Positions 6,034 through 64,000 of a stretch of DNA of 64,000 nucleotides are shown in pieces. The translations under genes and the position numbers were made by a program. The first letter of the stretch is position 1; every line of letters starts with the position of its first letter. This DNA is from Eledone cirrhosa (lineage: Eukaryota). Location of the stretch: assembly GCA_964016885.1 (NCBI GenBank), contig OZ024756.1, forward strand, positions 12,276,001 to 12,340,000. Reading direction: 5' to 3'. The notes beneath the pieces are model-generated. The model was given only the letters and a program-made list of their open reading frames with translations, was not told the origin of the DNA and did not search any database.

Positions 6034-6040
<7 letters not shown>

Positions 6041-6250
6041 TAAAAGAATAATGAATAAAACAATGAAACAGTTCCTTATATTAAACAAAAAAAGTTCATT
6101 ATTTAACGATCGTTTCTAGGATATATATGTGTTAGAATTGGCATGCATATTCAACAGATCTATGTACAAAATTATACAAAATTATACAAACTATCAAGAT
6201 TAAATATACATACCAAACACACATATATGCCGTCTTCAGAAATAATTCAT
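6034..6250 (-). mobile_element. Solo diverged terminal fragment of the Penelope-like pLTR, containing an HHR motif (6095-6246)
   Basis: Aligns by eye with 11660-11866 (same orientation) and with the reverse complement of 19208-19415. Confidence 0.85.
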
Positions 6251-6309
6251 ACGGATTGGACACTACCGTAAACTCTTGGTAGATTTATCTACATATATAT
6301 ATATATATA

Positions 6310-6721: not shown

Positions 6722-6925
6722 TCTCTCTCCCTCTGACCCCCCCCCCCCACTCTTCCCGCTATCTCTCTCGCTCCTCTCTTCTGTCTCCCCCTTTTCTTTT
6801 CTTTTCTTCTGTTTCTCTTTCTTTTTCTCTCGCTGGAGTTATATCTCTATCTCCCTCCCTCACTCTGTCCCTCTCTAACCTCTACCCTACACCTCCCACT
6901 GTCTCTTTCTCCCCTCCACAGCGAA

Positions 6926-7879
6926 ATGGACTGCATGCAGGAAAAATGTGAAATCAGGAGTCAGCGAAACTGGTCGAAGATTGAACTAACGGTTTTGATC
7001 AAGGGGTGGACTATGGCTGATGGGTCTCCACCAAGCAAAAAGATGGCGGAGAACCTGAAGAGCCATGGGTTTCTGAGGAGCCTGGTACAGATAGAGAGAA
7101 AGAGAAAAGAAATTGAGAAGGCGTATGTCCTCATAGCGCCTCATATGGCGATGCTAAGCCGTGTCCTCAGGGAGGAGAAAACCGAAGGGAGGGATGAGGA
7201 GAAGGAGAGGGAAAAGGAAGAGGAAAAGGAAAGGGAAAAAGAAAAGGAGGAGAGCACAAGCACGGACCTGAAAGAAAATGATATACCCTCCGCTACAGGC
7301 AGGGAGGGCAGGCCGGGCAACCAACAAGCTAAGGGCAAAGGTGAAAAGCGAAATCACCTTCCGAAGGAGAACCAAGCGCAGAGGGACCAGTGGACAACTG
7401 TTCAAAGAAAGAACAGAAAGCACCGAGACACTGGGAGCAAAAAACACCAAGTAATGTGCAAGTTTTTCAAGAACGGGACATGCTGGTATGGAGAGACAGG
7501 GATGGGATGCAGATTCGCCCACCCTAGGTCTCAAACCAACTATGCCCATCATACTCGCGCAACAGGCCCCAGCCAAAGCCGAAATAAGCCGCTCCAGAAG
7601 TATGCTGATGTCGCGCGTGCTGCACCAACAAGGAGAAGGCACGCACATGCCGACGAGATACAGATGGCAGCAGCAGATCAGAAAAATTTTTTAGTGATGG
7701 CAGAGAAGATTGTGGGACAGCTGACCTGGCTGCATCGTCTCCAGAGCCAGGGTCATCCACACCAGCACTCGAGACCACCGCAGTTAAGGGACCCAGAGTG
7801 GCCGCCGCTGACACCAGACCAGGTGTCATACCGACAGCCATTACTGGCACCCCAAAAGTCACACCAGTGTTGCTGCTGA
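6926..7879 (+). CDS. LINE ORF1 protein: N-terminal Myb/SANT(trihelix)-like domain, E/K-rich linker, CCCH zinc finger
   Basis: [14 protein letters not shown]...[24 protein letters not shown] resembles the trihelix Myb/SANT pattern; [22 protein letters not shown] is a CCCH finger; lies directly before ORF2. Confidence 0.8.
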
Positions 7880-8706
7880 ATGTCAGGGGCCTGGTGAAAC
7901 TCAGCAACATGAGTAAAATTTCCTACCTGGGAGACTTAGCCATAAGCAATCAAGCACTATGCATGGCACTAACCGAAACGCACCTGACAAGCAGTATAGC
8001 AGATGCAGAAATACATATACCGAAATATACTGTATTTCGTTCGGACAGGAAGGAGAGAACTCATGGTGGGGTTGCTCTGTATATCCGTGAAGATGTCACA
8101 CCAATTGTACTGTTGACACATTCAAACTCAGTCTGTGACACACTGATAATACATATGAAGCAACTACAGACGGTAATATGTGTCACATATCGGCCGCCCG
8201 ATGCCCCCAGTCATGAGGGTAAATTTGAGGATAGCCTAAGTAGGATAGAAGAGGTCCTTGACAAGCTGGACCAGGGTCTCAACATCCTACTGCTGGGAGA
8301 CTTCAACCTACCAAAGGTCAAATGGCCTGAGGGCCACCTCCTCCCTGGAATGACGTCAATAGAACAGAGACAGACGGAATCCCTGCTGGCCCTCACACAC
8401 AGGCTGTTCATGGAGCAAGCAATACTCCTCCCAACAAGAGGTGAAAATGTCCTGGACCTCTGTTTTACAAACAACGAAGTGCTCATCCACAATGTAAAGG
8501 TGACACCAACAATTCTCTCGGATCATAACTTGGTAGAGCTAATGATATGTGGTCCAAGAGAACCAACAGAGACAAAACCACCAAGAAACTCCGGGACGCT
8601 ATCCAGCCTTAACTTCTACGGGGCTGACTGGAAGAAGATTAAGAGTGAAATCCGGAAGCAAACATGGAGTGCAAACATCGCCACACACAATTTCAACACT
8701 TCATGA
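7693..8706 (+). CDS. LINE ORF2 part 1: apurinic-like (APE) endonuclease
   Basis: Motifs LLNVRGL, LTETHL, GGVALY, YRPP, LGDFNLP, LDLCFTN, SDHNLV. Frame is open from 7609 with no ATG before the first motif; start given at the inferred frameshift site. Confidence 0.9.
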   Translation, partial: SDGREDCGTADLAASSPEPGSSTPALETTAVKGPRVAAADTRPGVIPTAITGTPKVTPVLLLNVRGLVKLSNMSKISYLGDLAISNQALCMALTETHLTSSIADAEIHIPKYTVFRSDRKERTHGGVALYIREDVTPIVLLTHSNSVCDTLIIHMKQLQTVICVTYRPPDAPSHEGKFEDSLSRIEEVLDKLDQGLNILLLGDFNLPKVKWPEGHLLPGMTSIEQRQTESLLALTHRLFMEQAILLPTRGENVLDLCFTNNEVLIHNVKVTPTILSDHNLVELMICGPREPTETKPPRNSGTLSSLNFYGADWKKIKSEIRKQTWSANIATHNFNTS

Positions 8707-10826
8707 CAACGATACACACCATATGCAAAAAGTGTGTCCCGGAGAAAGAGGCAAACAGACACAAAAATCTTATTCCCAGAGATAGGAAAATCCTTATGAG
8801 ACGTAGAACTAAACTCTCAAACCAGTTGAATAGTCAACAAAACCAAAACAAGAAGGAATCCTATTTGAAACGTGCACTACTTGACACCGAGATTGCACTC
8901 AAGCTTTCACATGAGAATGAGAGGGCAAGGAAAGAGAACAGGGCCATAGAAAACATTAAAACAAACCCTAAGGCCTTCTTTAAATTTGCAAAAGAAACTG
9001 CCTCAGTACACTGCAAGATTGGACCACTCTTCCACACGGACGGTTCATTAACCGAAAATCCCCAAGAGATATGTGAAATACTGAACGAACAGTACAAAAG
9101 TGTCTTCACATGTCCACTGAGGCACATGCAAATAACGAAGCCAGAGGAGTTCTTTGATGCCACAACACTACATCAAGAAATGGCAACCATCAACCACATA
9201 GACATAACGGAGGAGGATGTGGTGTACGCCATTGATGAAATTAGAACAGACTCGGCTGCTGGACCTGATGGATTCCCAGCAGTTCTCCTAAAAATATGTA
9301 AGCGGGCCTTAGCAACTCCACTGAAGATGCTCTTCAGAAGCTCCTTGGCTAGCGGTGTACTACCCAGGGAGCTGAAAGAAGGCACAATATGCCCTATCCA
9401 TAAAGGAGGTAGTAGAGCGGAGGCCAAGAACTATAGGCCAGTCTCCCTGACGTCGCATATCAGTAAGGTCATGGAGCGAGTCGTCAGAAAGAAACTAATC
9501 ACTTTCCTCGAAGAAAATGACCGCCTGACTAGCACGCAACATGGCTTCCGCCCAGGAAGAAGCTGCCTTACACAGCTGCTACATCACTACGACTGGGTAC
9601 TGAGACAGCTACTAGACAGCTCACATGTAGACGTGATATATCTTGACTTTGCGAAGGCCTTTGACAAGGTCGACCACGGAATGATATGTCACAAACTACA
9701 CGGACTCGGCATAACTGGAAAAGTAGGTGAGTGGCTGCATGGCTTCCTGAGGGACAGAAGCCAGGCAGTCGCAGCAAATGGGGCCCTCTCGAGGGAAACA
9801 CCGATAACAAGTGGGGTGCCTCAGGGGACAGTCCTGGGACCACTACTGTTTTTGGTGGCTCTCTCGGACATGCCCTCTGTGGTGCATGCAACAACATCCC
9901 TCACTAGCTATGCTGATGACACTAAGGTAGCACAGGCAATCAAAAACCCGGCTGACGCTGCCCTCTTACAGCAGGATCTGGATGCCATATACAGATGGGC
10001 GGAAGAAAACAACATGCAGTTTAATGCTGGCAAATTCCAAGCCCTACAATACAAACCTGCAAACACAAACACAAATATAGCGGAACACAGCTACACAGGA
10101 CCAGGAGGGACCGATATCCCCGTGTCAAAATCGATACGAGACCTGGGCATAGACATGAGCGATGATGCATCTTTTTCTTCACACATCATGAAGGTGGCGA
10201 CATCATGTAGACGATTCGCTGGCTGGATCTTGAGGACTTTCCTTACAAGAGATCGAGACACCATGTTGACACTGTGGAGGACTTTTGTCCTAAGCCGCCT
10301 GGACTACTGCTCCCAGCTGTGGTCACCCCATAGTGTCAAACTAACCACAGAGCTTGAGGCAATCCAGCGAAGCTACACCAAGAGGATTGCCAAGATGAGG
10401 GAGACAAGCTACTGGGAGAGGCTGAGGGAACTGAACCTCTACTCCTTGGAGCGAAGACGGGAGAGATACGCAGTGATCTACATGTGGAAAATCCTGGAGG
10501 GACTAGCACCAAACTTTGGCATTGGGAGCTGGACCAACCGTCGAACAGGACGTCACTGTGTGGTGCCAAAGGTCCCGTCTTCCACATCTAGAATAAGGAG
10601 CAGGTATTGCAATAGCCTGGGATTCAAGGGCCCTCAACTCTTCAACAGGCTGCCGAGGCATCTGCGAGACTTGCATGACGTGGAGGTGGATGTCTTTAAG
10701 AAACATCTCGACACCTTTTTATCCAGGATCCCGGATGAGCCCACAGCAAGACACGAGGGAAACCTAAGGGCAGCAGCAACACACTCCCTCCTACACCAGT
10801 GGCCAACCTATACAGGCTGGAGATAA
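8664..10826 (+). CDS. LINE ORF2 part 2: reverse transcriptase (frameshifted from part 1)
   Basis: [56 protein letters not shown], and a CR1-like C-terminus ([15 protein letters not shown]). Confidence 0.95.
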
Positions 10827-10900: not shown

Positions 10901-13737
<2,837 letters not shown>

Positions 13738-13738
13738 T

Positions 13739-15361
13739 AAAAAGTATAAATCCGTCTTTCAAAAGGACCTTGATTCTACCCTATTGGACCTAAAAAAGTC
13801 TAAAAAAATCCATGTCCACTCGGACAAAACTGGTAACTTGTATCATATGGATATTGAACATTATAATGAGTTCATATATAAAGAACTCAGAAAAAGTTAT
13901 AAAAAATCTAATAATGCGTCACTCACCAACATCAACAACAAAACACACAACATAGTAAAAAAACTAAATATTGAAGATAGAACTGAACCTTTGGCATTGA
14001 GAAGTCCACACTTCAACCTGAAAGATCACAAATCTAACTTTAACTCTAATCCTTCTATTAGACTTATATGTCCCTCCAAATCAGATATTGGAATAATTAG
14101 CAAAAAAATTTTAGATAGAGTCATCCCACAAATAAGAAAATACGTTATTTTACCACTCTGGGAAAACACCTCCCAGGTAATTAATTGGTTTAAAAATATT
14201 AGGTGTAAATCTTCTGCTTCTTTCCTACAGTTTGATATAGATAACTATTATTCTTCTATATCACCCATACTCCTGAACAAAGCATTAATATTTGCTAAAA
14301 ATAGATCTAATTTAACTTCGGATGACATTAACATTATTACACATGCTAGACAAACACTTATTGAATTTCAGAATGAATACTGGACCAGAAACACTTATAG
14401 TAATCTTTTTGATATTACTATGGGTTCAAGCGATTCTGCCCAAATTACTGATCTTGTGGGCCTCTTTCTCCTTTTCAACATAAATGCCTCTTTTCCCCAC
14501 CTCAAAGGTGGTTTATATCGTGATGACTGTCTTCTTCTTTCTAACAACCTTAGCCTTTCAGAAATCGAAAAAAACAAAAAGCATATTAGAACTTTCCTTA
14601 AGGACTATTATAATCTTAATATTACTTTTGAAAAAACAAGTAAAGTAGTAAATTTCCTAGATATAACTTTAGATTTAGCTACGGGTATATACCAACCTTA
14701 CCATAAACCTAACCAAAACTTACATTACATACACTCACAATCTAATCACCCTAAATCTATCCTTAAAAACCTTGCATATAATATATCACTTAGAATTTCT
14801 AACCTTTCTTCTAACCAAGATGTATTTGATAAAAATGCGACCTTTTATAATGAAGCTCTAGATAGAAGTGGCCACAAAAATAGATTAGAGTATATAACTT
14901 CTACTAAAAATACTGAAAACATACAGCATAATATTACCAACAAACACCAAATGAAAGGTACACACCTAAATGCCACCCACAGTATACCCCAAAATACTAA
15001 ATCTTCTAATATAAAGTATAGTAACCCTCAAAAAACTACTTATCATAAGACTATAATAAATATTAATAATAAAACTCCTAATAAAAAAGATAAAACACCT
15101 AAATCTACAAATATAACTAAATATAGTTGTGGTGAGATCATTAACATTATTCCTCCTAGTAAAAATCATGATACAACATATAAAAATAATAAAAATAATA
15201 AACAACATAGAAACCGTAATAGACGAGTTACTTGGTATAATGCTCCTTTTAATTTACAAGTTAAGGATAATATTGCTAAAAAATTTTTTTATATCCTTGA
15301 GAAAAACTTCCCGCCAAACCACAAATACCATCAAATCTTAAATAGGTCTACAGTTAAATAA
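13739..15361 (+). pseudogene. PLE reverse transcriptase (5'-truncated, terminated by a 37-bp duplication)
   Basis: SDKTGNLY, LKDHKSNF, FDIDNYYSSI, FDITMGSSDSAQITDLVGLFLL, LYRDDCL, NFLDITLDL, YIHSQSNHP, VTWYNAPF. Confidence 0.92.
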
Positions 15362-15959
15362 ATACCATCAAATCTTAAATAGGTCTACAGTTAAATTCTC
15401 ATATTCTACAACAAATAACATAAAACAAAATATAAGTGCATATAATGCATATAAATGTAAGAAAACTATAAGTATACCACCAGTACATCAAATTAACAAT
15501 AATATCTCCTCAAATACAGAATTAACGAAAGGATGTAACTGTAGAAACAAAACAAACTGCCCATTAAAAGGGAATTGTCTTGTTAACAACATAGTCTATA
15601 AATGTAATGTTAAAACTAAAGATTCTATTTGCTCATATATAGGAGCTACCTCTAACAATTTTAAGACAAGGTATAATACCCACAAACATAGCTTTAAAAA
15701 TGCCGCACTGGCTAATACAACATCTCTAGCAGAAAAAATCAATAGTTATAAAAATAAAAATATAAAATATGATTTGACCTGGAGTGTGCTCAAAAGAGCC
15801 ACCCCTTATCAAAATAATAGAAAGGAATGTAGATTATGTTCCCAAGAACTATTTGAAATAATGAAGTCTAGGGATATCTTATTAAATAAAAGACAGGAAT
15901 TAATTATATCGTGTAATCATAAACTAAAAAAAACATTTAAATATTATAAACCTAATTAA
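15360..15959 (+). pseudogene. PLE GIY-YIG endonuclease (C-terminal part of the same ORF, frameshifted)
   Basis: Manual translation: CNCRNKTNCPLKGNCLVNNIVYKCNV...SYIGATSNNFKTRYNTHKHSF...CRLCSQE...LLNKRQE...CNH. Confidence 0.9.
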
Positions 15960-16177
15960 TAACATTATTCTAGAATTTAATTTAATTTAAATGTTAGTTA
16001 ACCTATAAATTTAATTTAATTAATATTTTATTACAGATGAGAAAATATTATGTAATCATTAATTTTGAAAAACCTTTAAATATTACTAATATATATTCAG
16101 TAATTTAATTTATAGATTAATTTTAACTTATTTTAACCTTTTATTATAATTTTTTAATTTAGTTTAACCTTTTATTA

Positions 16178-16221
<44 letters not shown>

Positions 16222-17342
16222 TATAATTCTTTTACAGATAAAATATAACAAAATAATATCATGTATCCTATGACGGAGAAAGAATTTTTAGTATTATTGA
16301 CCTAATTAATATACATTTTGGAAATATATTTATTATTTGGTTTTAGCTTTAATCAACCTAAAACTTTAATTTTAATTTTAATTTGCTTAAAATTAGTATC
16401 CTTGTACAGACGAATTGCAGAATTTCATGTAATCATAGAATGGGAGGTGTTTTTGGATATATACCTAGTTAATATATTCTGTGCAAAAATTTTTTGAAAA
16501 AGATATGTATATCTATATGTATATGTATATGTGTGTATTGTATGTGTATCTGTATGTATATTTATGTGACTATATATGTATGTATGTGTGTATATATATG
16601 TATATATATATATATATATGTGTATGTATATGTATATGTATGTGTATGTGTATGTATATGTATGTGTATGCGTATTAATTTTGATTTTTATTTGCATATA
16701 ATTATATTATGCTATTGATGAAATACAATATCTGCTTTATGTATTGTATACCTAATTAACATATACTAATTAACATATACTATTGAAATAAATATATAAT
16801 TTTTAACTTAGTTAACATATAATTTATATGCTACTACCGATGTAATACTTTATTTTATTTTTATTTGGGTTTCTTTTCCCTATTATTAACTTTAATTTAG
16901 TTATAATGTAATTAATAATCTACTACTTTTGACTTCATAATTCTGCTTCAAATATTATAAACCTAACTAATTTACACCTTGGAAATCAATATGTTGACTA
17001 TCTTTGGTTTAGTTGACATATGATTAATGGTATACTTTTTTATTTTGTGATGCATAGATTTCGTATTTCCTAGCATTGAAAATATGTAAGAACATACATT
17101 GAATTAAGATATGGAAAATATTATAGGTTTCTTGAAACATATATTTACTTTGATCCCCTTCTCCAAACCCCCCCCTTTCCCCCATACTATTATCATCTGT
17201 TTTTGTAAGTGTATATGTATGAATTTGGGTAGATGGGTGTCTATATAGTTTTTTTGGTATTTATTTCTAGATATAAAAATACATATATGAGCATGTAAAT
17301 ATGAATGTAAGATTGAGTGTGTATATATGATTGTACATACAT

Positions 17343-17796
17343 ATGTATGTATATGTATGTATATATATGTATTATATATGTACGTGTATGTGAATGTGTG
17401 GTATATATATATGTGTAGGTATATGTATATATGTGTGCGTATGTGTATGCTTGTATATGGGAATATATATGTGTGTATATATGTATATATGTATATGCGT
17501 GTTTGCATGTATGTGTATATGGGTTCTGTATATATTTGTATGTCTCTCTATTTATATGTTTATCTTCGTATCTATGTGATATATGTGTGTGTGTGTGCAT
17601 GTATGCATATGTATGTGTTTGTATGTGTTTGTATGTGTGTGTGTATATATATGTATGTATTTGGGCACACTCACATACATATATATATATATATATATAT
17701 ATGTATGTGAGTGTGTATGTGTGTCTGTATGTGTGTGGGTGTGTATATATGTGTATGTATATATATATGTGTATGTATGTGTATGTGTGTGTATAT

Positions 17797-17842
<46 letters not shown>

Positions 17843-17981
17843 ATATAGGTGTCTATGTGTGAATATATGTCTTTATTCGTATGTGTGTATTTATATATGT
17901 TTATATTTAGGTGTATGTATGTATGTGTATGTATGTATGTATATGTATGTGTATGTATGTATATGTGTATATGTGTGTATA

Positions 17982-18012
<31 letters not shown>

Positions 18013-18250
18013 TATTCTTTATTATTATTGTAATATAACTTATGTGTATATGTGTATAAGTGAGGTTGTGTAGGTATATATACTATATGTATATATAAGG
18101 GTAATGAAATGTATATATATATATATATATATATATATGTGCATGTCTGTATTTTATGTGTGTGTGTATATATATATATATGTGTATGTGTGTATATATG
18201 TATGTATATATGCATATATGTGTACGTGTGTGTATGTTTATATATGTATA

Positions 18251-18288
<38 letters not shown>

Positions 18289-18398
18289 TGGATGTTTGTA
18301 TGTGTTTTCATGGTGGTATGAGTGTGGGATATATATGTTTTGTATAAGTATATGTATGTGTATGTATATATATATGAGTCTATGTGTGTGTGTGTATA

Positions 18399-18437
<39 letters not shown>

Positions 18438-19415
18438 ATGTGTGTATGTGTTGCGCGTGTGTGTGTCCGTATTTTTATCTTTTTATATGTGTATGTGTAT
18501 GTTCGTGTAAATGTATGTGTGTGTATGACAGTATAGGTATGTGTGTATGTATGTATGTGTAGATATCTCTATGTGCGCGTACAAGTACGTATGTGTATGT
18601 ATATCTGTATGCGTATGTACATTATATTATATGTAATATATTTTATTGTTTTTATTTTTTTATTTTTCATAATTTATAGATACATTTATATTAGGCTGTC
18701 TGTCTGACAACCTAATACTGACCCCTCCCCCCCCCCTCCCACCTAATTTCTGTATCTTGATCTTGAAATGTGTGTACCAGTGTGTTTATGTGAGTGACTT
18801 AATTTCTATTTGCTTATGATTTTATATCCACATATATAAATGTGAGTGGGGGGTGTGTGTGCGTTTGTGTGTTCGTGGTTATGTGTATATTTTATATATA
18901 TACGCACATGTATGTGTGATTATACTGATATGTGTGAGTATGAAAAAAATATATTTATATGCTTGACTATATAAGTATCATTGCGTTTCTTATCAGCGCA
19001 TTAAGCTTACAGAGATATTAACCTTGAAATTTTTTATTTGCATCCATCTTTTTAGTATGCACATACATATTATACACACATTATTGTAAAATGTGTGTAG
19101 GGTTTTACATGTATATACACACACCAAACTGCTTTTTAACCCTTTGTGTTTTCATTGGTCAATTTTGAACTGATATTTTGAATTGTTGTTATTATCAATA
19201 AATATACTTCATTATTTCTGAAGACGGCGTATATATGTGTTAGGTATGTATATTTAATCTTGATAATTTGTATAATTTTGTATAATTTTGTACATAGATC
19301 TGTTAAATATGCATACCAATTATAGCACATATATGCCCTAGAAACGATCGTTAAATAGTGAACTTTTTTTGTTTAATATAAGGAATTGTTTGTTCATTAT
19401 TTGTTTAATATTTTA
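17343..19415 (+). repeat. Right arm (3' pLTR) of the PLE, microsatellite-rich
   Basis: Inverted counterpart of 11660-13737 with scattered substitutions and microsatellite length differences. Confidence 0.93.
19208..19362 (+). ncRNA. Type I hammerhead motif with ~115-nt stem II
   Basis: TTCATTATTT-CTGAAGA(19218-24)-[long hairpin]-GAAA(19341-44)-CGATCG-TT/AAATAGTGAA; 10-bp stem I, palindromic stem III, predicted GUU cleavage after 19352. Confidence 0.68.
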
Positions 19416-19459
19416 TATTCATATATATATATTCATATATATATATATATATATATATA

Positions 19460-21034: not shown

Positions 21035-21320
21035 TACAGTGTTTAGGCAACCACGTCACCTTTTTGTTCAACACTGACACAGGAACGATGTACTAGTTTC
21101 AAGCTTATTAGCTATCGTCAGCACCGTATACCTTTCTGCCAGATGGTTGAACGTCCGAAAGTATATACTTTCCTTATGAAAATTAACGGCTGAGCAGCCT
21201 AATTTGCATATCGAGTGAGTTCAGTCGGCCAGGCTGACGATAGCTAATAAGCTTGAAACTAGTACATCGTTCCTGTGTCAGTGTTGAACAAAAAGGTGAC
21301 GTGGTTGCCTAAACACTGTA
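21035..21320. repeat. 88-bp inverted repeat pair (21035-21122 / 21233-21320), each arm with an HHR core
   Basis: Arms are reverse complements by eye; 110-bp spacer. Confidence 0.9.
21085..21127 (-). ncRNA. Minimal type I hammerhead ribozyme
   Basis: ACGGTG-CTGACGA-T-AGCT-AATA-AGCT-T-GAAA-CTAG-TA/CATCGT: 6-bp stem I, 4-bp stem II, palindromic stem III, GUA site. Confidence 0.75.
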
Positions 21321-34720: not shown

Positions 34721-35487
34721 TTCTACCTGGAGTTGCGACCGATAGATAGTATTAGCAATTGGAAAGACCAACGGAAACATTGTTCCCTCGGTCCGATTTG
34801 ACGAAAGTCGATCGTTCTCGATATATATATATATATATGTGTGTTTTTATTTCATTGTTTTAACTTATATATATATGTATATATATATATATATATAAGT
34901 TAAAACAATGAAATAAAAAATCAAGTCATTAGAGATATTTCATTGTTTTAACTTATATCATGACTGTTTTCCTTTTAATGTGTTTATTGTTTTCCGGGAT
35001 TTATGTTAACCTACAACATTTTCAACATATGGATTACATTGAGTTCTTCATGCAGAATAGACCCCACAACTTACCGTGGATATCTCTGTGTATATATATA
35101 AGGAAAAGAAATCGAAAATGCAACTGCAGTCTTTTAAGAATATTTATTTATTTACTGGTTTCACAGTTCTTATGATTTTCAAAAGTAAAATTGAGAGGGT
35201 CTGTGTTTCTGTTGTGATCTGTCTCAACTGAAACACAAACCCTCCATCTCTGAAAGACCGGTAAAGAATTATGAAACCGGTAAAGTAAATAAATGAACAT
35301 TCTTAAAAGACTCCAGTTGTAGTTTCAATTTCTTTTCCTTATGCTTTCACCCGTGTAGGACATATCGTTTTAAAAAACCTCATTTTCATATATATATATA
35401 TGTGTGTGTATATTAATATATATATGTGTGTGTATATTAATATATATATGTGTGTGTATATTAATATATATATGTGTGTGTATATTA

Positions 35488-42789: not shown

Positions 42790-47743
<4,954 letters not shown>

Positions 47744-48353
47744 ATGGTGGCTGCCATCTCCTTTTCGAGTACGGCCACTACTTTATATCCATGTAGGAGA
47801 ACCCCTACCAATGCGCTGAACGAGTGTGAATTTTTAGTCCAGCCAGCAACTTGAAAACTCTGGTACAAAGACTACACTTGTAACAATTATTGACACATAG
47901 TGCTGGGCCCATGGTACCATGTGACGACAAGGGCAGAGAGATCTCCAGATATAAAGCAATGCTTGTGCCGTGAAGCTTTTATAGAGAGGAAAGGCACTGC
48001 ACAAAGCCAGTCCCACTCTCTTAACCAAGATGATATTTACCAAAAAGAAGAACAAGTCAACATCATTGGATACCATCAGGGTTGCAGGTGTTATATCAGA
48101 GTTTTCCTTCTCCTAGTATTCTGCCTTGACAAAGGCTAAGGGGTCATCTCTCCCGGTGATTTTGGATGGCCATTGACTCTTAAGAGCTCCTTTGTCCTTT
48201 GACAGGTTTTGTTTTTAGTCCTGCAGGATGTCCAAAATCACCTTCCTCACCAAGAAACCTTGGTGGGGTTGCCAGTTTAGTCGCCAACGTCCCGACCATG
48301 AGACAGGTTGTACTGGGATACATGTTACCAGTAGCACCAACTGGTGACCTGAC

Positions 48354-52600: not shown

Positions 52601-53058
52601 TTTAAAATCTGCAGCACATTTTTTAAAGATAAATCTAAAGCAATTGAAGATCTTTTTCATCTGAGTGACTAAAACATATTTTCTGGGAAAGTAAAAGTAA
52701 AAGATGGCCTGTAAAAATACCCATTTGTTGGTTAATAATTCAAATTATTATTTACAGTAAGATGACCCCTTTTATTCTCTACATTATGGGATCAAATAAA
52801 AAGTGAGAGTAGAGTGTACGAGTATTTGACAGACAGTTTTACATTTGATTGACTTTTACAAGTGCTCGATTTGCCATATTCATTTAACTAACAAATAGTT
52901 AGTCGCTCTACATGGCTGAATACAATAAATGTAATCTGAGTTTTTCGAATATTAATAATAATATGCGATTCATTTGCAATTATGCAAACATCCTCTTTTT
53001 AAGCCGTGTCAGTAGAATGAACCCATCATTCTTGCTCTTGTGTTGGCATGTAAACAGA

Positions 53059-53105
53059 ACTGCAGACACTAATGTTTCTGGGTGATTACCCTTCATCAGT
53101 ACAGT
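53059..53105 (-). ncRNA. Type I hammerhead ribozyme
   Basis: ACTGTA-CTGATGA-A-GGGT-AATC-ACCC-A-GAAA-CA-TTAG-TG-TC/TGCAGT: all three stems present, GUC site. Confidence 0.8.
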
Positions 53106-57429: not shown

Positions 57430-58040
57430 ATGGTGGCTGCTAACTCGTTTTCGAGTACGGCCACTACTTTATATCCATGTAGGAGAACCCCTACCGATGC
57501 GCTGAATGAGTGTGACTTTTTAGTCCAGCCAGCGACTTGAAAACTCTGGTACAAACACTACACTTGTGACAATTATTGACACATAGTGCTGGGCCCATGG
57601 TACCATGTGACGACAAGTGCAGAGAGATCTCCAGATATAAAGCAATGTCTGTGCCGTGAAGCTTTTATAGTGAGCAAAGGCACTGCACAAAGCCAGTCCC
57701 ACTCTCTTAACCAAGATGATATTTACCAAAAAGAAGAATAAGTCAACATCATTGGATACCATCAGGGTTGCAGGTGTTGTATCAGAGTTTTCCTTCTCCT
57801 AGAATTCTGCCTTGACAAAGGCTAAGGGGTCATCTCTCCCGGTGATTTTGGATGGCCATTGACTCTTAAGAGCTCCTTTGCCCTTTGACAGGTCTTGTTT
57901 TTAGTCCTGCAGGATGTCCAAAGTCACCCTCCTCACCAAGAAACCTTGGTGGGGTTGCCAGTTTAGTCGCCAACGACCCGACCATGAGACAGGTTGTACT
58001 GGGATACATGTTACCAGTAGCACCAACTGGTGACCTGACA
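57430..58040 (-). mobile_element. Bipartite RTE-derived element, copy 2
   Basis: Highly similar to copies 1 and 3, same termini. Confidence 0.75.
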
Positions 58041-60658: not shown

Positions 60659-61133
60659 CATACATATATATATATATGTATATATATATACATATATATA
60701 TATATGTATATATATACATATATATATATATGTATATATATATACATATATACATACATACATACATATATATATGTATATATATATACATATATACATA
60801 CATACATACATATATATATATGTATATATATATACACATATATACATACATACATATATATATATGTATATATATATACATATATACATACATACATATA
60901 TATATATGTATATATATATACATATATACATACATACATATATATACATGTATATATATATACATATATACATACATACATATATATATATGTATATATA
61001 TATATATACATACATACATATATATATGTATATATATATACATATATATATACATACATACATATATATATGTATATATATATACATATATATATATACA
61101 TACATACATATATATATGTATATATATATACAT

Positions 61134-61742
61134 ATGGTGGCTGCCAACTCGTTTTCGAGTACGGCCACTACTTTATATCCATGTAGGAGAACCCCTACCG
61201 ATGCGCTGAACGAGTGTGACTTTTTAGTCTAGCCAGCGACTTGAAAACTCTGGTACAAACACTACACTTGTGACAATTATTGGCACAGTGCTGGGCCCAT
61301 GGTACCATGTGACGACAAGTGCAGAGAGATCTCCAGATATAAAGCAATGCCTGTGCCGTGAAGCTTTTATAGTGAGCAAAGGCACTGCACAAAGCCAGTC
61401 CCACTCTCTTAACCAAGATGATATTTACCAAAAAGAAGAACAAGTCAACATCATTGGATACCATCAGGGTTGCAGGTGTTATATCAGAGTTTTCCTTCTC
61501 TTAGAATTCTGCCTTGACAAAGGCTAAGGGGTCATCTCTCCCAGTGATTTTGGATGGCCATTGACTCTTAAGAGCTCCTTTGCCCTTCGACAGGTTTTGT
61601 TTTTAGGCCTGCAGGATGTCCAAAGTCACCCTCCTCACCAAGAAACCTTGGTGGGGTTGCCAGTTTAGTCGCCAACGACCCGACCATGAGACAGGTTGTA
61701 CTGGGATACATGTTACCAGTAGCACCAAGTGGTGACCTGACA
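61134..61742 (-). mobile_element. Bipartite RTE-derived element, copy 3
   Basis: Same termini; here [22 protein letters not shown] (C2H2) is in frame with the short ORF. Confidence 0.75.
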
Positions 61743-62065
61743 TAACATATATATACATATATATATATACATACATACATATATATATGTATATATATAT
61801 ACATATATATATATACATACATATATATATATATATATACATACATATATATATACATACATATATATATATATATATATACATACATACATATATATAT
61901 GTATATACATATATATATACATACATATATATATATATGTATATATATATACATATATACATACATACATATATATATATATGTATATATATATACATAC
62001 ATACATATATATATATATGTATATATATATACATACATACATATATATATATGTATATATATATA

Positions 62066-64000
62066 GGCAGGAGGAGAGTAACATGGTGGTGGAACAGTAA
62101 GGTGGAGGGGTCAATTAAGGCCAAAAAGCAGGCTTGGAAAGTGTGGCGGGATGGGGGAAGCAGAGAAGACTATCAAGTGGCCAGGAGGGAAGCTAGGAGA
62201 CAAGTGTACTTCGCAAGAAGGGAAGCAGAGGAAAGAAAGTTCAAGCATGTTCTACAACGTGAGGACCAAAAACGTGAGGTGTTCAGGATTGCTAGGCAAT
62301 GTGTCAAGGAAAACAGTGATATTGTCGGGGAGAAGTGTGTACTTAACGATGATGGCGTACTTGCCATCACCGACGCCGATAAGAAGGTAGCTTGGAAGTG
62401 TCACTATGAAAGGCTACTAAATGAGGAGAATAAATGGGAGAAAGACAGTCTCCCCCATATCGACCCGATAGAGGGACCAGCAGTGTTAGTCGAGGGTAGT
62501 ATAATAAGTAAGGCAATCAAAGATATGAAGACAGGCAAGGCGGCTGGGCCTTCGGAAATAGTTGCCAAGATGCTGAAGGCATCTGGTACGGTGGGACACA
62601 CCATGGTCACCCGGATAGTCAACCAAGTCATACAGAATGGGGTTGTTCCGAAGGACTGGCGCAGCAGCATTATCGTTAACTGTTATAAGGGTAAAGGAGA
62701 TGCCCTAGATAGGAGTAACTATAGAGGCATTAAATTAATCGACCAGGTCATGAAGGTCACGGAAAAAGTTATAGCGCAACTAATCAGAGAGCGAATTGAT
62801 CTAGCTGAAATGCAGTTCGGGTTTGTGTCAGGAAAAAGTAACACAGACGCTCTTTTCATTGTACGACAACTACAGGAGAAGTACCTAGCTAAAAGTAAAC
62901 CCCTATACTTAGCTTTCGTCGACTTGGAGAAGGCCTTCGACAGAGTCCCTCGTTCCATTATCTGGTGGGCTCTTAGAAAACTAGGTGTTGATGAATGGCT
63001 TGTGAGAGCTATACAAGCCATGTATAAAGAAACAGTCAGCAAGGTTAGAATTAACAACGAATATAGTGAAGAGTTTAGTGTAAAAGTTGGTGTTCATCAG
63101 GGCTCTGTTCTTAGCCCCCTACTATTTATTATTGCCCTCCAGGCTATAACAGTGGAGTTCAAGACCGGCTGCCCATGGGAACTCCTATACGCAGATGATC
63201 TAACGCTCATAGCTGAATCAATGGCCGAGCTAGAGAAGAAATTCCAAACATGGTAGCATGGCCTAGAATCAAAAGGCCTTAAAATTAACCTAGCTAAGAC
63301 TAAAGTTCTAGTTTGTAAGAAAGAAAATAAGGCGGCGGTCCCCTCCGGGAAGTGGCCATGCGCAGAGTGTAGGAAAGGCGTAGGTAGAAATTCCATTTTG
63401 TGTCCCAAATGCAAAGTTTGGGTGCATAAAATCTATGTTCTTAGTTAGGTAAGCTAACTAAGAACATAGATTTTACATGTGGCCGGTGTTCTGGGGAAAT
63501 AAGTAGCAGCAAGTGCCCACAAAATACTAGCTCTTTCAACTGCGCAGAGGGTTCTATAGAAATAGTGGACAGCTTCCGTTACCTGGGTGACAAAATCAGC
63601 AGTGGGGGAGGGTGCTCTGAAAGTACAGTAGCTAGAGTCAGAACTGGGTGGAAAAAGTTCAGAGAGCTTATACCACTATTAGCCGCTAAAGGGTTCTCCC
63701 TAAAAATGAAAGGCAGGCTGTACGATGCCTGCATACGAACAGCAATGTTGCATGGCAGTGAGACCTGGGCATTGTGTGCAGAGGATATACGCAGACTAGA
63801 GAGAAACGAAGCTTGCATGCTCCGCTGGATGTGTAATAGTAATATACGTGAACGACAAAGCATAAACGAACTAAGGAAAAAATTAGAAATAAGAGGGATC
63901 AGATGTTGTTTACTAGAGAGAAGGCTACATTGGTATGGTCACGTGATGCGCATGAAGGACGATAGCTGTATAACAAAGTGCAGGGCAATAAAGATAGACG
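62066..64000 (+). mobile_element. 5'-truncated RTE LINE copy (nonsense at 63254-56, frameshift at ~63432), continues beyond window
   Basis: TWWWN, KAAGP, YKGKGD, NYRGIKL, QFGF, YADD; from 62865 nearly identical to the reverse complement of the copy whose 5' end is at 60392. Confidence 0.93.

Follow-up and report, generated by a model that had tools for sequence, protein, structure and literature searches.

A predicted type I hammerhead with a 116-nucleotide stem II in the terminal repeat of a Hydra-clade Penelope-like element

The window analysed here, a 64,000-nucleotide stretch of Eledone cirrhosa DNA, carries a long and a short insertion of a Penelope-like element (PLE) of the Hydra clade, with a hammerhead motif at the end of the element, in its terminal repeat (pLTR). 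The long insertion, at 11660-19414, has an inverted arm (11660-13736) followed by one in sense orientation (13737-19414), and the two insertions comprise, apart from the sense-strand hammerhead itself, the following features.

6034-6246, minus strand: separate short insertion, subfamily B, with hammerhead copy 3 at 6095-6246 starting exactly at the TC/ATT boundary (the slash marks the bond)
6247-6293, plus strand: second arm, head-to-head with copy 3, with its end at terminus 2
11660-13736, minus strand: inverted, 5'-truncated arm of the long insertion, with hammerhead copy 2 at 11712-11866
13737-15959, plus strand: RT-GIY-YIG open reading frame (ORF) of the host, 5'-truncated and frameshifted by a short duplication near 15325-15395
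15960-19207, plus strand: microsatellite-rich 3' UTR of the host element

Between the insertions lies a LINE (6737-10826, plus strand) with a CCCH-finger ORF1, an AP endonuclease and an RT in different frames. Tail fragments of subfamily E of the same PLE occur in both orientations at about 34850-35030, and a 600-bp repeat is present in three copies of 96-98% identity (47743-48349, 57434-58035 and 61133-61739), which adjoin long open frames at 44579-47854 and 61736-63256.

An intact ORF of 813 residues is found in four other stretches of the 3.0-Gb genome, between hammerheads about 6.19 kb apart; the tandem unit is 6,188 bp, with its ATG 353 nt downstream of the cut site. The single ORF contains an RT with YRDD, followed by a C-terminal GIY-YIG with VYK..YIG (judged by eye), and no Pfam family passed for it. 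The Hydra-clade motifs RWR, DKT, CNCRNKTNC (CxCX5C), CRLC (CxxC) and CNH (CxH) are present and CCHH is absent, as judged by eye against the definition and alignment rows of PMC8557442, and the 3' flanks of copies show the (TA)n insertion of that clade. The length, with the long microsatellite-rich 3' UTR, departs from the generally under 3 kb of Hydra elements, which is a tendency in PMC8557442 and not a definition. Membership in the Naiad clade is ruled out by the C-terminal, instead of N-terminal, position of GIY-YIG, and membership in the non-LTR retrozymes by the coding capacity of the tandem units and the solo or inverted arrangement of the short copies. A search of the genome with the endonuclease gave at least 150 matches, all of those listed being 100% identical, which marks the family as young. 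Exact matching with three disjoint patterns over stem III gives 8,207, 7,283 and 1,822 genomic matches (17,312 in all), against 0, 1 and 0 for the reversed patterns. Contigs of three further organisms (B, F and D) carry pieces of the motif with few differences, reflecting either close relatives or recent transfer.

The hammerhead of the sense arm had been proposed in an earlier note on this DNA, and we find all of its parts where they had been placed, in a host with Hydra-clade motifs.

19208-19217, plus strand: stem I, 5' strand (motif reading, fold, compensatory pairs); an RNA starting at 19211 would hold 19211-19217 only
19210-19211, plus strand: 5' boundary of short copies, TC/ATT; putative RNA 5' end at an initiator-like start
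19218-19224, plus strand: catalytic core C3-A9, CUGAAGA (motif reading; C3-G8 / U3-A8 covariation)
19225-19340, plus strand: stem II region, 116 nt (fold, covariation)
19262-19300, plus strand: near-invariant apical motif, namely a GAU-AUC helix, a 4x3 internal loop (ANUU opposite UAG) and a UGUA-UACA helix (conservation); candidate docking site
19341-19343, plus strand: GAA, G12-A14 (motif reading)
19344-19351, plus strand: palindromic stem III ACGAUCGU (motif reading, duplex energy)
19352, plus strand: U17, with the predicted cut after it (motif reading)
19353-19362, plus strand: stem I, 3' strand (fold, covariation)
19363-19414, plus strand: tail, reaching terminus 1 some 62 nt past the cut site, then (TA)n
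19393-19402, plus strand: tail motif UUCAUUAUUU, which repeats the stem I 5' strand and is predicted to pair with the 3' strand of stem I in its place

The minimum-energy fold of 19208-19362 adopts the three-way layout at -48.7 kcal/mol (z -6.10), equalled or bettered by 0/200 shuffles. Three helices surround the core and the ends lie in stem I, as seen both in the fold and in pair counts. The core reads CUGANGA with GAAA, and the cut site conforms to NUH, position 17 being U or A among 168 scored copies. The palindrome ACGAUCGU of stem III is predicted to be worth -10.0 kcal/mol as a duplex and 0 as a hairpin, and in the monomer stem III amounts to 2 bp only; in subfamilies A and B the palindrome reaches 10 nt, so that A14 can pair with U17. 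One canonical feature is absent: the R10.1-Y11.1 pair that closes stem II is C.A in 161/168 copies. The earlier note had rightly pointed to a non-canonical base of stem II, but the surprise is lessened by the mismatches at the stem II base in the published Hydra and PLE-X rows (PMC8557442), where such mismatches are common among Hydra hammerheads, and by the tolerance of U.U at the R10.1-Y11.1 position (PMC3088659). The same C.A base also occurs in PLE-X1_cBra (PMC8557442) and at a further locus (L210). There is no short loop II, and no tertiary partner was located for the fixed C.C at the fourth pair of stem II, which could itself be a site of loop I-loop II contact.

Three copies are present in the window, as claimed beforehand and as recovered both by BLAST and by our own descriptor, in which stem II is allowed up to 260 nt: 19208-19362 (plus strand), 11712-11866 (minus strand, 98%) and 6095-6246 (minus strand, 93%). 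The 10-bp stem I described for them applies to 19208-19362 but not to copy 3, which is truncated within stem I and has 7 bp there. The replacement of AAATAGT by AAATAAT in copy 3 does convert a U.G into a U-A pair of stem I, as described. The asserted preservation of structure among the three copies is borne out for two of the three changes in copy 2, whereas the third breaks a pair, and three copies prove little; the real support for the structure comes from the other subfamilies in the genome. The expectation that standard descriptors would miss the motif is borne out by the Rfam hammerhead models, which give no match in 19100-19420 at E up to 10, where just four unrelated weak matches appear; across the whole window, the best 150 of 549 listed Rfam matches include microsatellite-driven miRNA matches only. 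Two more short type I hammerhead candidates, each with a 14-nt stem II, lie on the minus strand at about 53055-53105 (C3 at 53099) and at 21080-21127 (C3 at 21121).

Loci were sampled in genome order along one contig (C1), giving 224 aligned copies, of which the 168 with a recognisable core were scored. They fall into seven subfamilies (A, B, C, C2, D and E among them), whose stem II regions are 58-94% identical. Stem I, the core and the basal helix of stem II persist in all of them. At the 3-8 pair, 134 of the scored copies have C-G and 34 have U-A, with no mixed combination, so that the pair is intact in 168/168; the core is otherwise fixed, with variation at N7 and N17 only and never a G at N17. 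The U3-A8 variant is represented in subfamily E, and a GUA cut site in subfamily C. The swap from C3-G8 to U3-A8, already known from PLE hammerheads (PMC4209133), has a rationale in the active site of a hammerhead and nowhere else, and speaks for the hammerhead reading. Pair counting over 22 named pairs in 35 copies that span the subfamilies finds 95.1% of cells paired, against 29-46% when the strands are slid. Two-sided changes number 47, compared with 14.0 +/- 4.5 in shuffles (0/500 as high), a figure inflated by the relatedness of the copies, whose events are not independent; the signal is carried by stem I, the 3-8 pair and the second pair of stem II. In the basal helix, the modal sequences of the seven subfamilies form 42/42 pairs, against 6-29/42 when slid, and swapping arms between A/B/C/C2 and D/E leaves 2-4/7 pairs. 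The earlier note had named a lack of covariation, together with a lack of cleavage, as what would refute its claim; the covariation across subfamilies is strong and does not refute it. Against the fold, z varies from -10 to +0.7 in single old copies, and C2 and 3/5 D copies have a minimum-energy fold in which the core is paired or stem I is lost. Anchored counts were used in place of RNAalifold on a MAFFT alignment, which missed most of stem II with the arms gapped out of register.

The fold could conceivably be a catalytically dead relic, retained only as a protein-binding structure. That no copy begins at the cut site would fit such a relic, as would the weakness of PLE hammerheads in vitro (PMC4209133), but a paired change within an otherwise fixed core, across lineages about 60% identical in stem II, is hard to reconcile with a dead ribozyme, and we consider the relic improbable. 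That the fold is a selected hammerhead we regard as very likely.

The arm that sets this hammerhead apart is built as follows. Stem II starts with C.A, G.U, G-C and C.C, continues with a 14-bp helix (19229-19242 with 19323-19336), a 5-nt bulge and a 16-bp helix (19243-19258 with 19302-19317), and ends in the apical motif, then a loop with a 10-nt tandem repeat. The 14/12-nt pairing quoted earlier for this arm has to be replaced by the 14-bp basal helix and the four positions that precede it. The foot reads C.A, R-Y, G-C, C.C in all subfamilies, with C.U in part of E. Both halves of the apical motif are exact in 142/168 copies, and the 35 aligned copies contain no two-sided change there, so the apical structure is not supported by covariation. 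The motif includes a GATA-like word and may be conserved as DNA.

These properties invite the reading that the ribozyme is an ordinary Hydra hammerhead, its long arm a tolerated insertion grown by AT-repeat slippage for which any rod would do, and its invariant apical words DNA promoter elements downstream of the start. The region does vary from 90 to 126 nt across the 168 scored copies and carries the repeat in its loop. The promoter half of this reading draws on the invariance of the apical motif, on the internal promoter of Penelope downstream of its start (PMC2377424), and on a second Hydra family in the same genome (3.53-kb unit, 54-nt stem II, 19-nt stem III and U3-A8 core; L239:4750-4860, among loci L232-L261, G000), which has a start-like motif and a TATA-like word inside its stem II. 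Mere tolerance, however, sits poorly with a basal helix that has been rebuilt with different sequence in A-C, in D and in E on the same four-position foot, and with apical halves that stay complementary and in register while the intervening loop varies from 3 to about 26 nt. We regard this reading as unlikely, but as one with a real claim to attention. We prefer an arm kept for its shape.

The ends of the copies bear on how the RNA is made and copied. At the 3' side, 52 of 106 A/B copies end at terminus 1 (about 62 nt past the cut site) and 45 at terminus 2 (about 200 nt), the termini being about 137 nt apart; 5 enter the body of the element and 4 were not assigned. Most short head-to-head pairs have one arm per terminus, and the long pair of the window has terminus 1 in both arms. 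These ends fit two internal RT starts and the two-strand priming of PAc (PMC11167929).

At the 5' side, short copies pile up at TC/ATT (19210/19211), 7 nt before the core, which we take to be an initiator-like motif. Of 144 short copies, 65 begin within 11 nt around the boundary (4 of them SINE insertions, and paired arms are not independent), and 26 begin exactly 7 nt before C3, these 4 included. Among 9,634 genomic matches, 3,105 lack the C preceding ATTATTT. Subfamily E has a weaker boundary (9/27 short copies at -8 to +2) than B or C, and the same 5' junction recurs in organism D (loose end at X7 2123). Among 90 tail-anchored copies, none has its start at the cut site. The possibility of a further cut site at the boundary, which follows a UH, was ruled out for want of a stem I or stem III partner. 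Copies that start at the boundary never run into the element body (0/73), compared with 6/79 of the others, a weak hint that long copies derive from a template without ends. In the second Hydra family, 30/33 incidental copies begin at, or at most 22 nt inside, a TTC/ATTT in mid-stem II and none in the preceding 39 nt, so that most of its short copies carry half a hammerhead.

Most simply, the boundary is likely to mark where the RNA begins, at an initiator-like motif. Such motifs have been described in pLTRs of about 200 bp (PMC3846280), and Penelope transcription starts shortly before its hammerhead (PMC2377424; PMC4209133). Two other origins of the pile-up have to be weighed. The first is an endonuclease nick at C/ATTAT in new DNA, or an arrest of RT where the RNA refolds behind the enzyme. 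PAc cuts ATT motifs (PMC11167929), and a SINE of this genome inserts at C/ATTAT, repeatedly at the boundary bond itself. A cap-derived extra G is likewise not in evidence, with 649/3,105 (21%) at the boundary against 11/58 non-C bases (19%) at other junctions. Yet other C/ATTAT sites are not hot: within 2 nt of six internal sites there is one long-copy 5' end among those listed, and none at the site 131 nt upstream. Re-copied short units that end at the boundary (4/57 junctions) fit the end of a template better than a nick, and the boundary of the second Hydra family lies in mid-stem II, not at the edge of the ribozyme. A nick or an arrest therefore seems to us a rather poor explanation. The SINE is about 180 nt long and ends in GTAGAAACA; at nine loci it has entered ATTAT, in most cases following a C, and is flanked by target duplications of 3-18 nt. 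It is found repeatedly in stem I of the PLE and once at terminus 1. Differing target duplications mark these as separate insertions, which rules out a SINE-headed non-autonomous family.

The second is 3'-end processing of a read-through RNA after the conserved AATAAA at 19197-19202, with the hammerhead fold protecting the downstream piece. The hexamer precedes stem I in subfamilies A-E and could be the poly(A) signal of the element at its 3' repeat, and the missing cap signature suits this origin also. Its distance from the boundary is only 6-8 nt, however, below the usual 10-30 nt between AATAAA and the processed end, which counts against processing; in the second Hydra family, moreover, the boundary has no AATAAA before it. 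We give this origin little credence, and retain a transcription start at TC/ATT as the preferred reading.

The tail motif UUCAUUAUUU offers a predicted switch. In one subfamily A copy, addition of the tail lowers the predicted probability of stem I from 0.77 to 0.00 and raises that of the alternative pair to 0.95; over 84 distinct copies, stem I is predicted above 0.5 in 70 without the tail and in 15 with it. The background from shuffled tails is high (0.42-0.52 in A/B, against 0.94 for the real tail); U-rich shuffled tails also compete (mean 0.35), and in subfamily D (three copies) the tail has no effect (0.17 vs 0.18). All subfamilies retain the motif, with diverging spacers; its conservation may reflect a signalling role for the terminus, which follows 9-13 nt further on.

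In sum, we picture, with confidence somewhat above even, a type I hammerhead with a 116-base arm in a Hydra-clade pLTR, its shape kept across subfamilies, which is likely to lie at the RNA 5' end and whose cutting is predicted to require a dimer and to happen only part of the time; the best reading is a weak, dimer-dependent, switchable ribozyme with a likely docking rod. Transcription would start at the initiator-like TC/ATT, at 19211, and priming by the reverse transcriptase would be internal, at terminus 1 or at terminus 2. On the proximal repeat the enzyme would run off the RNA 5' end, yielding pLTRs, solo or head-to-head, that are about 205 or 340 nt long and hold an uncut hammerhead. The 8-nt palindrome is too short for a stem III in the monomer, so the 5' and 3' hammerheads of one transcript, or those of two RNAs, would pair, and cleavage would require an intermolecular stem III of 8 bp. 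Now and then the RNA would be cut twice and ligated into a 6.19-kb circle, which is likely to have templated the tandem arrays; a hammerhead-made circle has been proposed (PMC4209133), and here this step rests on the 0/73 versus 6/79 copies that enter the body. Once transcribed, the UUCAUURUUU motif of the tail would capture the stem I 3' strand, either keeping most RNA uncut or releasing the product. The long arm would leave the chemistry unchanged and act as a stiff rod that nucleates the junction, its invariant apical loop probably being bound, to judge from its conservation, by a protein of the element. Against this scheme, an RNA starting at 19211 is predicted to be 3.4 kcal/mol more stable misfolded than active.

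A bolder version, which we put forward tentatively as possible but doubtful, is a regulated natural hammerhead in which stem II is a docking rod whose apical loop binds the RT-endonuclease. Binding, together with the anti-stem-I motif of the tail, would decide between RNA that is cut and circularised (the tandem full-length template) and RNA that stays uncut (the mRNA, and the template of thousands of short pLTR copies), and if so the genome copies record both RNA pools, cut and uncut.

The role of hammerheads in PLEs is stated to be unclear (PMC8557442), and in one in vitro study cleavage was dispensable, insertion being unaffected by mutants of the PAc hammerhead (PMC11167929). The present family is young, with intact ORFs, at least 17,000 motif copies and subfamilies that amount to natural compensatory mutants, core included; cleavage by dimers, the making of circles and control through a downstream competitor can all be tested directly in it. 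A very large class is overlooked by descriptors and Rfam models that expect a short stem II, and reports of no hammerhead in PLEs may need rechecking.

Hydra-clade PLE hammerheads (Craig et al. 2021, PMC8557442) share with this one the type I topology near the element 3' end, extra or mismatched nucleotides at the stem II foot, a short palindromic stem III, A or U at position 17, (TA)n targets and the protein motifs of the host. U occupies the cleavage site in 10/26 Hydra rows of that work, where mismatched or extra bases at the stem II foot are common. The 10-mer of stem III was not found in its supplement. The odd stem II base and the GUU site are ordinary for the clade; the length is unusual. 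The arm, estimated beforehand at about 115 nt, spans 116 nt at this locus and 90-126 nt in the family, 4-10 times the 10-24 nt of the 26 Hydra rows in File S2 of PMC8557442, where the maximum for any row is about 53 nt (PLE-X1_sMoe), and the 6.19-kb unit likewise contrasts with elements generally under 3 kb. Among 77 metagenome loci with related ORFs, 47 have a hammerhead with a stem II of 11-25 nt, a relaxed descriptor adds one of 25 nt (48/77), and none exceeds 30 nt; at the other 29 no hammerhead was found, but many of these end near the ORF and may have had a long-armed one beyond. A PLE stem II of comparable size was not found in the literature searched, most subscription papers being outside our reach.

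PAc, the Poseidon element of Anolis (PMC11167929), likewise has two internal RT start sites that define a tail, primes both strands, uses unprocessed RNA as template and has no ends at the cut site. Its ORF starts inside stem II and its tail is 30-40 nt, whereas here the termini are about 137 nt apart and the ATG follows the cut site by 353 nt. The non-LTR retrozymes (Li, Clavereau and Pollet 2026, 10.64898/2026.07.22.740005) are, like our short copies, non-coding hammerhead copies derived from pLTRs, but they form head-to-tail arrays of monomers, while the short copies here are solo or head-to-head and the tandem units carry the ORF. With the minimal hammerheads (min-HHR) of Cervera and De la Pena 2014 (PMC4209133), the present motif has in common the location in pLTRs, the palindromic stem III, a predicted dependence on dimers, the U3-A8 variant, mostly solo dispersed copies and a proposed role in forming circles. 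The helix II there described as 'larger than usual' is 7-8 bp with a highly conserved G10.1-C11.1, in contrast to about 40 bp on a C.A base here, next to a stem I of 7-10 bp.
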